Source of the DNA: Spirosoma sp. 48-14
GTDB taxonomy: Bacteria > Bacteroidota > Bacteroidia > Cytophagales > Spirosomataceae
Direction: 5' to 3'
Assembly: GCF_001898575.1 (NCBI RefSeq)
Contig: NZ_MKUD01000010.1
Coordinates: 297,110 to 361,109 of the forward strand
DNA: 64,000 nt
This document shows, one piece after another, positions 9,943 to 12,473 of this stretch. How positions within the stretch are numbered: position 1 is the first letter of the stretch; each line of letters begins with the position of its first letter. A model generated the notes under the pieces. It had not been told where the DNA came from, made no database searches, and saw only the letters and a program-made list of their open reading frames with translations. The position numbers and the translations under genes are program-made.

Positions 9943-10893
9943 TTAGCCCGCAACGACGGCTGGCAACCGTGCGGGTGCAGTTGGACTTGGCGTATGTGTA
10001 AAATTCCAGAGAACGGCATCCTTTATCGCTTTGAGGTACGAAGGCTGCCATCGTAACGTATATTGGGCTAGGGCTTTAGGAAGGGCAATACAGAAAAAAT
10101 ACATATAGAACACCAGCAACGGAAACCCGTCGACGTTCCGGCGCATGAACCAAAGCCGATTTCGGGTATGGTAATACACCTTCATTGGATTCATCTTGCC
10201 GACACTCATCGACTCGCGATGGTAAATCAGGGCTTTAGGCTGATAGTAAATGGTAAAACCAGCCCGTCGGATACGTGCCGACCAGTCCAGTTCTTCATAA
10301 TACAGGAAAAAGCTGTCGTCGAGTGAGCCCGCTTGTTCCAGCACCGACCGACTGACGAGCATAGCGGCTCCATGAGCAAACCAGGTGGCGCCGGGCTTGT
10401 CGTGCTGCCCCTGATCGGGTTCCATAAGCCCTATAGCCCACGTACGTCCGGTATATTCATTCAATGGATGATAACCGGCATACTGGATGATGTTGGGCTG
10501 GTCGTAATAACGAATCTTTGGGCAGACAACCCCAACGGCTGGGTTCTCCGCAAAGGGCGCCAGTAGCTGTTCCAGTAAATCAGGTGTAACGATGGTATCG
10601 TTGTTGAGCAGGAAGTAATACTCGCCCTGAGCATATCGAATCCCCAGATTATTGCCACCCGAAAATCCAAGATTATCGGGACTGTCGATGTATGTTACAT
10701 GGGGATAGTTGCCCTGCGCAATCCGTTCGGCAAGATCATCCTTCGATCCATTATTGACGACAATGATTTCATAGCGCGGATAGGTCAGCGCCCGAGTCGA
10801 TTCCAACAGATCGCAGGTTACTGCCGCCTGATTGTAATTGATTGTTATCAGCGAAATCAGCGGCTTTACTTCTACACATTCTCCTTCTGCCAT
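9943..10893 (-). CDS. GT2 family glycosyltransferase
   Basis: ITINYN, NLGFSGGNN, LLNND, FFLYYEELDW, HRESMS motifs. Confidence 0.9.
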   Translation of the reverse strand: MAEGECVEVKPLISLITINYNQAAVTCDLLESTRALTYPRYEIIVVNNGSKDDLAERIAQGNYPHVTYIDSPDNLGFSGGNNLGIRYAQGEYYFLLNNDTIVTPDLLEQLLAPFAENPAVGVVCPKIRYYDQPNIIQYAGYHPLNEYTGRTWAIGLMEPDQGQHDKPGATWFAHGAAMLVSRSVLEQAGSLDDSFFLYYEELDWSARIRRAGFTIYYQPKALIYHRESMSVGKMNPMKVYYHTRNRLWFMRRNVDGFPLLVFYMYFFCIALPKALAQYTLRWQPSYLKAIKDAVLWNFTHTPSPTAPARLPAVVAG

Positions 10894-12038
10894 ACCGCTT
10901 TTAAGGTTCTCAGCAAAATAATTAAGTCTGTACGAAAGGAGTGTCGTTTGGCATACAGTACATCCAACTGGATACGTTCCAGATCCGATACCTTCGACTT
11001 TCCCCGTTTGGTCACCTGCCAGAGTCCCGTCAGTCCGGCTGGTGCCGCAAAGCGACGGGCATAGCCAATATTGGTCAGTTTTTCGGCTTCGTATAGCGGA
11101 AGGGGACGATTGCCAACAAAGGACATATCGCCCTTCAGGATATTAAACAACTGCGGTAACTCATCAATACTCGTGTTTCGAAGGATTTTACCCAGTTTGG
11201 TCACACGGGGGTCTTCCTTAAACTTGCTAAACATGGCTTTCGCCTTCTGTTCGCGATGGTACTGAAGTTCGCAAATCTGCTTTTGGTCCAGATAGAGCGG
11301 GCGCTGACAGGGGCTATTGGCGAGTTTGCATTCATCGCATAGTTCATCGGCTGGTTTTTCCTCCACCTTATTGTACATGTTCTGCGACGCCATGCCCGCC
11401 AGTAACTTATCTGCTCCCGTACTCATGGTGCGAAACTTGTACATATCAAATATCCTGAAACCCATACCTACCCGTTTCGAACTGTAAAAAACGGGGCCTT
11501 TGGAGTCAAGCTTGACGAGCAACGCTACAATAAGTAACAGCGGAGAAATTAGGGTTAGGATGGTAAACGAAAGCAAAATATCAAAAATGCGTTTGCCAAT
11601 TGGCATTCGCACCGATACCGGCTTATGCACAACCCTACCATTTCGCTGATAGTCCCTTTTTTGAATGAGGTAATTCAACCGAATTTTCAGAGCAGCCTCT
11701 GAATAGTTCTGCGGAAATGCATCAATCACAAACCCATGATAGGGAGCGGCAGTCAGGTCGATCTTTTCCTGATCGGTAAGTAAAATAATGGGAATTTTAG
11801 TCCGGCTTTGTTTCGCCTGATAGGCGTTCATGAAGCCGCGCGTATTTAAATCGTCGTTATAGAGAATCAGGTCAACGGGCGCTTTATCATCCAGATAAGA
11901 AATGGCTGACCAGCCATCGGCCACACCAATGACCTCAATAGGTGAAGGGAATGCTCGCTGAAACGATTTAATGCGTCGGTCATCGTTATCAACATAGAGC
12001 ACCCGGAAGGGTTGCGTATTGTCACTTACAGCCTTCAT
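10872..12038 (-). CDS. priming phosphoglycosyl transferase (Bac_transf/WcaJ-like) with N-terminal receiver-like domain
   Basis: KRIFDI, YKFRTM, DPRVTKLGKILRNTSIDELPQLFNILKGDMSFVGNRP and GLTGLWQV motifs; N-terminal VLYVDND...DLILY...PIILLT receiver pattern. Confidence 0.92.
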   Translation of the reverse strand: MKAVSDNTQPFRVLYVDNDDRRIKSFQRAFPSPIEVIGVADGWSAISYLDDKAPVDLILYNDDLNTRGFMNAYQAKQSRTKIPIILLTDQEKIDLTAAPYHGFVIDAFPQNYSEAALKIRLNYLIQKRDYQRNGRVVHKPVSVRMPIGKRIFDILLSFTILTLISPLLLIVALLVKLDSKGPVFYSSKRVGMGFRIFDMYKFRTMSTGADKLLAGMASQNMYNKVEEKPADELCDECKLANSPCQRPLYLDQKQICELQYHREQKAKAMFSKFKEDPRVTKLGKILRNTSIDELPQLFNILKGDMSFVGNRPLPLYEAEKLTNIGYARRFAAPAGLTGLWQVTKRGKSKVSDLERIQLDVLYAKRHSFRTDLIILLRTLKAVWQKENV

Positions 12039-12062: not shown

Positions 12063-12473
12063 TCAATCGGCATTTGGTTGTCCTACATTGCTGGCTTCTG
12101 TCCGACGTAAGACCGTCATAATCTTGGTTTTTACCTCCATTGGATTGAAGGGCTTGATGATATAATCGTCAGCTCCTAATTTGAGGCAGGCAATTCGGGT
12201 ATCGCTGTCGGCGTAAGTTGAGAGAATAATGATGGGAAGCTTTCTAAAAACCGGGCTTGCCCTGAGCATGCTTATCAGGTTTTTGCCATCCATATGAGGC
12301 ATTTGTATATCCGACAGGATGATATCGACGGGGTGCCCTTCCTCCAGCCATGCCATACCTTCCATCCCATTTTCGGTAGTAGTTACTTCAAAATCATCTT
12401 TTAATGTTTGTCGCAGTACTTTCCGAATAAACGAGTCATCTTCGATCACTAAAACGTGGTATATTTTTTTCAT
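12063..12473 (-). CDS. single-domain response regulator (receiver)
   Basis: VLVIEDD, DIILSDIQMP, IIILST, DDYIIKPF: all canonical phospho-receiver residues are present. Confidence 0.92.
   Translation of the reverse strand: MKKIYHVLVIEDDSFIRKVLRQTLKDDFEVTTTENGMEGMAWLEEGHPVDIILSDIQMPHMDGKNLISMLRASPVFRKLPIIILSTYADSDTRIACLKLGADDYIIKPFNPMEVKTKIMTVLRRTEASNVGQPNAD

Follow-up and report, generated by a model that had tools for sequence, protein, structure and literature searches.

INTRODUCTION

The closest described relatives of the enzyme analyzed here are the priming phosphoglycosyl transferases (PGTs) WbaP and PglC (PDB 8t53, 8g1n, and 8e37), with which it shares a catalytic fold that includes a re-entrant Ser-Pro helix, a strand with KFR(S/T)M, an Asp-Glu dyad, and a DPRxT-bearing helix. 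In proteins of this fold, the catalytic domain faces the cytoplasm (PMC10186338, PMC10312794). Recognition of the nucleotide sugar and closure of the active site in monotopic PGTs are currently attributed mainly to a mobile loop or lid, a region that has been hard to define structurally. In PglC, smFRET has shown that the loop formed by residues 61 to 81 closes on ligand binding, and the conserved Met with which this mobile loop starts contacts uracil (bioRxiv 10.1101/2025.06.05.658054). In WbaP, Dodge et al. described a helix-turn-helix at residues 337 to 369 that is disordered in the cryo-EM map and adjoins the active site, and they proposed that it opens and closes over that site (PMC10312794); this element corresponds to the mobile loop of PglC, in which the GLLLP specificity motif is located (PMC10312794, PMC10186338).

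Here, we describe a PGT encoded in a 64,000-nucleotide stretch of Spirosoma DNA (the window; all positions given below are those of this whole stretch). An earlier note on this DNA had drawn attention to a cluster of four cysteines in the catalytic domain of the protein. The cluster falls in residues 206 to 275, at the same lid position as PglC loop 61-81 and the WbaP helix-turn-helix 337-369, and belongs to a predicted four-cysteine knuckle-hairpin module that is missing from all solved PGT members. The enzyme departs from its described relatives in two further respects: its N terminus is receiver-like, whereas large PGTs carry a four-helix bundle plus DUF, and the PRP motif of WbaP/PglC-type PGTs reads NRP.

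RESULTS

A priming transferase of the monotopic superfamily

The gene and the elements by which its product can be placed are as follows.

10872..12038, minus strand: priming phosphoglycosyl transferase gene, 388 aa (ORF list and translation)
11505..11600, minus strand: predicted re-entrant membrane helix, residues 147-178, with the Ser-Pro break S165-P166 (AF2 helix and PglC-fold homology)
11424..11438, minus strand: KFRTM motif, residues 201-205 (K201, F202, R203, and M205 invariant in a 46-sequence alignment)
11160..11165, minus strand: Asp-Glu catalytic dyad D292-E293 in SIDELPQ (invariant in the 46-sequence alignment)

The 388-aa protein consists of a REC-like N-terminal domain, the re-entrant membrane helix, and a Bac_transf catalytic domain with an enlarged lid. 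Pfam PF02397 (Bac_transf) matches residues 149 to 383 with 195.9 bits against a cut-off of 27; this match spreads 235 residues over 178 profile positions and so leaves about 56 extra residues in the protein. A phmmer search against solved structures returned WbaP and PglC with E values of 1e-29 to 1e-34, and the alignments always came in two stretches, the break between them being the insert. The AF2 model of the full protein (mean pLDDT, 76) was matched by Foldseek to PglC 8e37_A (E value, 1.4e-13; TMt, 0.83) and also to WbaP 8t53. None of the curated NCBIfam PGT equivalogs (WcaJ, WbaP, EpsZ, HfsE, etc.) was reached; the best NCBIfam score was that of TIGR03025, 243 bits against a cut-off of 295.6, and all others were far under their cut-offs. 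The best homologue, from Spirosoma aerolatum, is 97% identical.

In the same 46-sequence alignment, S165 is nearly invariant, and P166 and the KR.FD start are invariant. The position of M205 in the alignment makes it the counterpart of the uracil-contacting Met that anchors the PglC mobile loop, and D292-E293 takes the place of the PglC dyad Asp93-Glu94 (PMC10186338). By profile, predicted fold, and catalytic residues, the 388-aa protein belongs to the monotopic PGT superfamily; with its Asp-Glu dyad intact, it is probably a priming transferase of the ordinary kind, predicted to transfer a phospho-sugar to polyprenol phosphate. The nucleotide-binding motif that is PRP elsewhere reads N310-R311-P312 (window positions 11103-11111, minus strand), with Arg-Pro retained and the first Pro replaced. 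GNRP was found in 95 of the 97 clade members examined, in proteins with four lid cysteines (C4), with a long lid free of cysteine (C0), and with a short lid alike; to judge from the sequences, NRP is a clade marker and the sole departure of this PGT from the superfamily.

The enlarged lid and its four cysteines

Two features define the insert.

11214..11423, minus strand: enlarged lid segment, residues 206-275, from KFRTM to DPRVT, 70 residues (the phmmer alignment to WbaP splits exactly there)
11271..11339, minus strand: four-cysteine core C234-x2-C237-x6-C244-x11-C256, a candidate tetrahedral metal site (sequence, invariance, and all-or-none pattern)

Between KFRTM and DPRVT (residues 276 to 280), the protein reads ...ELCDECKLANSPCQRPLYLDQKQICE..., and its cysteine core is C234-D-E-C237-KLANSP-C244-QRPLYLDQKQI-C256-E. 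The codons lie at 11337-11339 (C234), 11328-11330 (C237), 11307-11309 (C244), and 11271-11273 (C256) and read gca, gca, aca, and gca, respectively, on the plus strand; the earlier note, which had placed a C-x2-C-x6-C-x11-C insert at 11271-11339, was thus exact, as that interval spans C256 to C234. These are the only cysteines in the 388 residues. The note had also described this loop as normally short in WcaJ/PglC-type enzymes, which is right in degree: the interval from KFRTM to DPRVT has 70 residues here versus about 15 in PglC, 32 in WbaP, and 14 to 17, without Cys, in the three other Bac_transf paralogues of the genome. WbaP chain residues 335 to 371, MVVNSKEVLERLLENDPKAKAEWDATFKLKDDPRIT, fill the aligned interval between KFRSM and DPRIT. 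Since the position of the insert is that of the PglC mobile loop and the WbaP helix-turn-helix, the four cysteines sit in an enlarged substrate lid and not in a random surface loop.

AF2 predicts the same lid secondary structure in the full-length model and in an isolated 83-aa segment: a helix (residues 209-217), a low-confidence acidic linker (218-230), a short helix (235-240), a hairpin (247-250/253-256), and the second lid helix (257-268). C234-x2-C237 leads into helix 235-240, C244 precedes the hairpin, and C256 ends it at the N terminus of the second lid helix. Confidence within the insert is moderate (pLDDT, approximately 62 to 68).

The tetrad is kept or lost as a unit

The pattern goes beyond chance: all four cysteines were present in each of the 117 top homologues that were parsed. 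They are invariant in the 46-sequence alignment, which reaches down to 47% identity, and in an alignment of 32 lids drawn from family- and phylum-level genomes at 35 to 65% identity; mean column identity in the latter is 44%, and in residues 23 to 69 of the lid segment no columns other than the four cysteines are invariant. The 275 distinct long lids divide into 240 with four cysteines, 34 with none, and one with a single nonhomologous Cys; none has two or three. The alignment check of Cys conservation that the earlier note had suggested comes out in favor of an invariant tetrad, present with all four residues or with none. Spacing across the 240 inserts is C-x2(-4)-C-x3-8-C-x10-13-C, with 2/6/11 in 189 of them, and 119 of 220 full-length C4 proteins lack any further Cys. 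Four residues that are kept together or dropped together behave as one functional unit, as would be expected for ligands of one cofactor.

The lids of C4 and C0 relatives are similar in length (59 to 82 residues) and have their flanks (..AD..L..L.HLNQY ... AF.KF.NDPRIT) and hairpin signature in common. A mixed C4 and C0 profile gave full-length matches in 29 of 401 genomes of the phylum; these 31 matches comprised 16 C4 and 15 C0 lids, and a search seeded with a Cys-free lid retrieved 74 C4 lids, 37 C0 lids, and 1 with a single nonhomologous Cys. A maximum-likelihood (ML) tree of 103 catalytic domains, built with no insert columns, requires 9 changes of the C0 label (5-95% bootstrap range, 9-9), and a single origin was seen in no bootstrap tree; C4 versus C0 alone needs 7 changes, and the well-supported branches force at least 3. 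A quick tree agrees with the careful ML tree on C4/C0 switching. On the insert-free tree, the four-or-none state therefore switches about 7 to 9 times. The residues that replace the four cysteines differ from one C0 clade to the next; one such clade, with the Emticicia-type lid, has a conserved Trp in the hairpin, GNLIDDSGWKNE.

Distribution and lid variants

Enlarged lids of 59 to 89 residues occur in a Bacteroidota clade that takes in Cytophagales, Chitinophagales, and Flavobacteriales. An exhaustive HMMER search with the 83-aa segment against 1.84 billion 50%-identity cluster representatives returned 65 clusters, all of them four-Cys PGTs except for one odd repeat protein and two fragments. 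In the genome sample, the segment was found in 136 of the 201 genomes of the family, covering 32 of 51 genera. Carriers of the tetrad include Spirosoma, Larkinella, Runella, Flectobacillus, Emticicia, Rhabdobacter, Telluribacter, and Persicobacter in the Cytophagales; Panacibacter, Ferruginibacter, and Parasediminibacterium in the Chitinophagales; and Lutibacter and a Schleiferiaceae MAG in the Flavobacteriales.

Some members of the clade have short lids. In L029-L032 and in P0265, P0291, and P0309, the first lid helix (AD..L..L.HLNQY) is kept, 29 to 37 residues separate KFRTM from DPRxT, and the hairpin module is missing; these proteins indicate that the module is an insertion or a deletion within an otherwise conserved helix-turn-helix lid. 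P0163, a metagenomic protein of 191 aa that is not a PGT, contains about four tandem copies of a motif like the hairpin half of the lid, ..NPLY[LF]DGSQVVVQELFEQTGIICE.. (E value, 5.7e-5); this match may be due to chance, or the repeat may be derived from the lid element.

The genome has five Bac_transf genes, two with a long four-Cys lid and three with the loops of 14 to 17 residues mentioned above. The second four-Cys enzyme (G000:C10:267196-267918, minus strand) is encoded by an open frame of 441 aa with a receiver-like domain and the lid CSACRAQGLSCQRLLFDEDKPICE; it lies on the same contig, approximately 30 to 40 kb away and approximately 29 kb upstream of the window, and is followed by a family-2 glycosyltransferase (GT2) gene. 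As each of the two four-Cys PGTs is accompanied by a GT2, the genome has two EPS-type loci headed by this type of enzyme.

Searches for a known finger, fold, or description

When the insert was scanned by itself against Pfam (as 70 aa and as 41 aa; E value of ≤10), only zf-primase came up, with E values of 0.013 to 0.038; the best score, 15.7 bits, is under the cut-off of 28.8 and gives no ground for placing the insert in that family. A profile of 32 inserts run against all PDB sequences recovered only the flanking WbaP motif and TFIIS at an E value of 1.8. The AF2 model of the isolated insert, which is small and of low confidence (pLDDT, 62), had no Foldseek match in the PDB, and VIA-align wide gave only unrelated chains for it, with Z scores of ≤2.2. 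An ESM Atlas feature search with residues 205 to 275 returned generic Bac_transf clusters only (0.80 to 0.84). These searches assigned the four-Cys module to no known zinc-finger family; given the small size of the insert and the modest confidence of the model, the missed matches do not make it a new fold.

The earlier note knew of no such module characterized in this family, and our reading agrees: in the literature searched, coverage of which was not exhaustive, we found no mention of zinc, of Cys clusters, or of receiver-domain features in monotopic PGTs. We regard the four-Cys lid as a small departure within a familiar family of enzymes, for which we found no earlier description, and not as a new kind of system.

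Receiver-like domain and operon

Three features link the PGT to a regulatory and biosynthetic context.

11640..12011, minus strand: N-terminal receiver-like domain of the PGT, residues 10-133 (AF2 pLDDT of approximately 90, beta-alpha pattern; Foldseek)
12063..12473, minus strand: stand-alone single-domain response regulator, directly upstream of the PGT gene (Pfam PF00072, 100.3 bits)
9943..10893, minus strand: family-2 glycosyltransferase, downstream (Pfam PF00535; ORF list)

Foldseek matched the first 130 residues of the PGT to many REC domains, with E values of approximately 1e-4 to 1e-5; PF00072 gave no Pfam match in this domain, and Asn occupies the aligned phospho-Asp position. The stop codon of the stand-alone regulator is 24 nt ahead of the PGT start, and the GT2 gene starts within the PGT gene, 22 nt before the end of the latter (window positions 10872-10893). 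By this 22-nt overlap, the PGT and the downstream GT2 are part of one operon, and the tight packing suggests that the first three genes are cotranslated. The neighbors on the same strand are the response regulator, two GT2 genes, Wzy_C, a GT1-type gene, OEP, GNVR (Wzc-like), and a Polysacc_synt_3 flippase; the locus is a Wzx/Wzy exopolysaccharide (EPS) operon, and the PGT is its priming enzyme.

In tblastn searches with the stand-alone regulator, receiver-type sequence adjoined or was fused to the PGT in 29 of 40 related loci, with C4 and C0 lids alike. Among spot-checked loci, L002 and L013 have a separate upstream regulator gene, and the receiver of L034 is fused; Cys-free PGT paralogues in Emticicia and Leadbetterella have a canonical fused receiver instead (L034; PF00072). 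The response regulator upstream of the PGT is a probable regulatory input. A link between C4 status and receiver fusion was considered and rejected: the C4 or C0 state does not track the fused receiver-like domain, and both lid types occur in short (approximately 250 to 290 aa) and in long (approximately 380 to 440 aa) proteins.

DISCUSSION

We propose that the four cysteines bind one metal ion, most likely zinc as Zn(Cys)4, in a tetrahedral site of structural function that staples a knuckle-plus-hairpin module at the tip of the lid, and we would give this reading a probability of roughly 0.6. The lid begins directly after the Met of KFRTM and would open and close over the UDP-sugar site as in PglC and WbaP, and in this clade it is enlarged from approximately 15 to 32 residues to 59 to 89. 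The CxxC turn of C234 and C237 would gather with C244 and C256 round one ion; the metal would tie the CxxC knuckle to the base and end of the beta-hairpin and to the N terminus of the second lid helix, and so would rigidify a small element that has no core of its own. We infer metal binding, the identity of the metal, and the geometry of the site alike. The domain is expected to be cytoplasmic: the fold is monotopic, with a re-entrant helix; the receiver-like domain lies on the same side of that helix; and the substrates are nucleotide sugars. A cytoplasmic location makes disulfides unlikely, which leaves a metal site as the natural reading of the tetrad. The arrangement is unlike a classic zinc ribbon, in which a CxxC knuckle would take the place of C-x11-C as the second ligand pair. 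We further infer that the module is no sensor but helps to close the lid or to recognize the substrate or a partner; beyond stabilizing itself, it could shape the sugar pocket, control closure, or contact a partner.

The alternative that fares best is a regulatory switch, in which a zinc-thiolate or free-thiol cluster senses oxidants or metal availability, the tip of the lid unfolds on oxidation or loss of the metal, and the first step of EPS synthesis is turned up or down. The cluster does sit on an element that closes as ligand binds, the linker between it and the first lid helix is of low confidence and probably flexible, so that the cluster is probably exposed, and the cysteines are strictly conserved in the Spirosoma/Larkinella/Runella group; Zn-Cys4 redox switches occur in other proteins. 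Cys-free lids of the same length and with the hairpin, however, are found in several clades, including paralogues in the same genera (Emticicia), so the function of the lid does not need thiols, and the earlier note's proposal, a gate on the first committed step of EPS synthesis that depends on metal or redox state, is left unsupported. The locus also already has a more obvious input in the stand-alone response regulator and the receiver-like domain, and its neighborhood contains no pointer to redox control. We therefore regard a switch as unlikely, and distinctly unlikely the fuller proposition that oxidative stress or zinc status tunes EPS initiation in Spirosoma and its relatives via such a switch, in parallel to the response-regulator input. 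The repeated, wholesale replacement of the cysteines with the lid retained is the behavior of structural zinc sites and not that of an indispensable sensor. The staple and switch readings are not mutually exclusive, and a structural site may double as a redox switch; were the switch reading true, stress sensing would be linked directly to the first step of EPS synthesis, which would be a new form of posttranslational control of a PGT.

Iron in place of zinc, as a rubredoxin-like Fe(Cys)4 site or as a [2Fe-2S] or [4Fe-4S] cluster, would make the tetrad a redox-active or O2-labile cofactor of the lid. Four conserved cysteines within 23 residues could in principle ligate iron or a cluster, the all-or-none pattern suits any tetradentate cofactor, and some sites annotated as zinc have later proved to be Fe-S. 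The spacing, however (2/6/11, range 2-4/3-8/10-13), fits no canonical Fe-S motif (CX3CX2C or CX2CX2CX3C), and the paired CxxC knuckles of rubredoxin are missing. The named carriers are mostly aerobic Bacteroidota of soil and water, where a cluster exposed on so mobile an element would presumably be fragile, and repeated replacement by ordinary residues suits a structural role better; an iron cofactor is, on these grounds, very unlikely. A cofactor-free lid, held by one or two disulfides or by a small hydrophobic or hydrogen-bonded packing core, is extremely improbable: C0 lids do show that the hairpin can exist without Cys, but the domain is on the cytoplasmic, reducing side, and packing leaves unexplained the absolute fourfold co-conservation, with no two- or three-Cys intermediates in 275 distinct lids.

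In this clade, a lid that is enlarged and probably rigidified by a metal staple could prove better ordered for structural work, and the matched Cys-free relatives are a ready comparison for how rigidity of the lid relates to specificity and turnover.

Three known systems bear comparison with this locus. Zinc ribbons, knuckles, and treble-clef elements resemble the predicted module in being small, in lacking a hydrophobic core, and in using four cysteines, with a CxxC turn, then a beta-hairpin, and then a helix; they differ in that the second ligand pair of the PGT lid is not a knuckle, and no significant sequence or structure match links them to it. EpsW-EpsZ (PMC12802240) is alike in placing a stand-alone receiver beside the priming PGT of a Wzx/Wzy EPS pathway, and posttranslational control of the first step is likely in both; unlike the PGT described here, EpsZ, which is a large PGT, has neither a fused receiver-like domain nor a four-Cys lid. 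The third parallel, and the closest precedent for the four-Cys lid, is the LID of adenylate kinase, in which C,C,C,C and H,S,D,T tetrads are mutually exclusive (PMC4545158). Many Gram-positive bacteria have the Zn-Cys4 form of this LID, whereas E. coli has H,S,D,T. Both lids are mobile and lie over a nucleotide site, and in both the four cysteines are replaced en bloc by lineage, in an all-or-none manner. The two are not homologous, and adenylate kinase uses two CxxC-type pairs, in contrast to the C-x2-C-x6-C-x11-C of the PGT lid; zinc binding is proven for the former and proposed for the latter. Alongside adenylate kinase, the PGT lid would be a second nucleotide-site lid that alternates between four-Cys and Cys-free forms.
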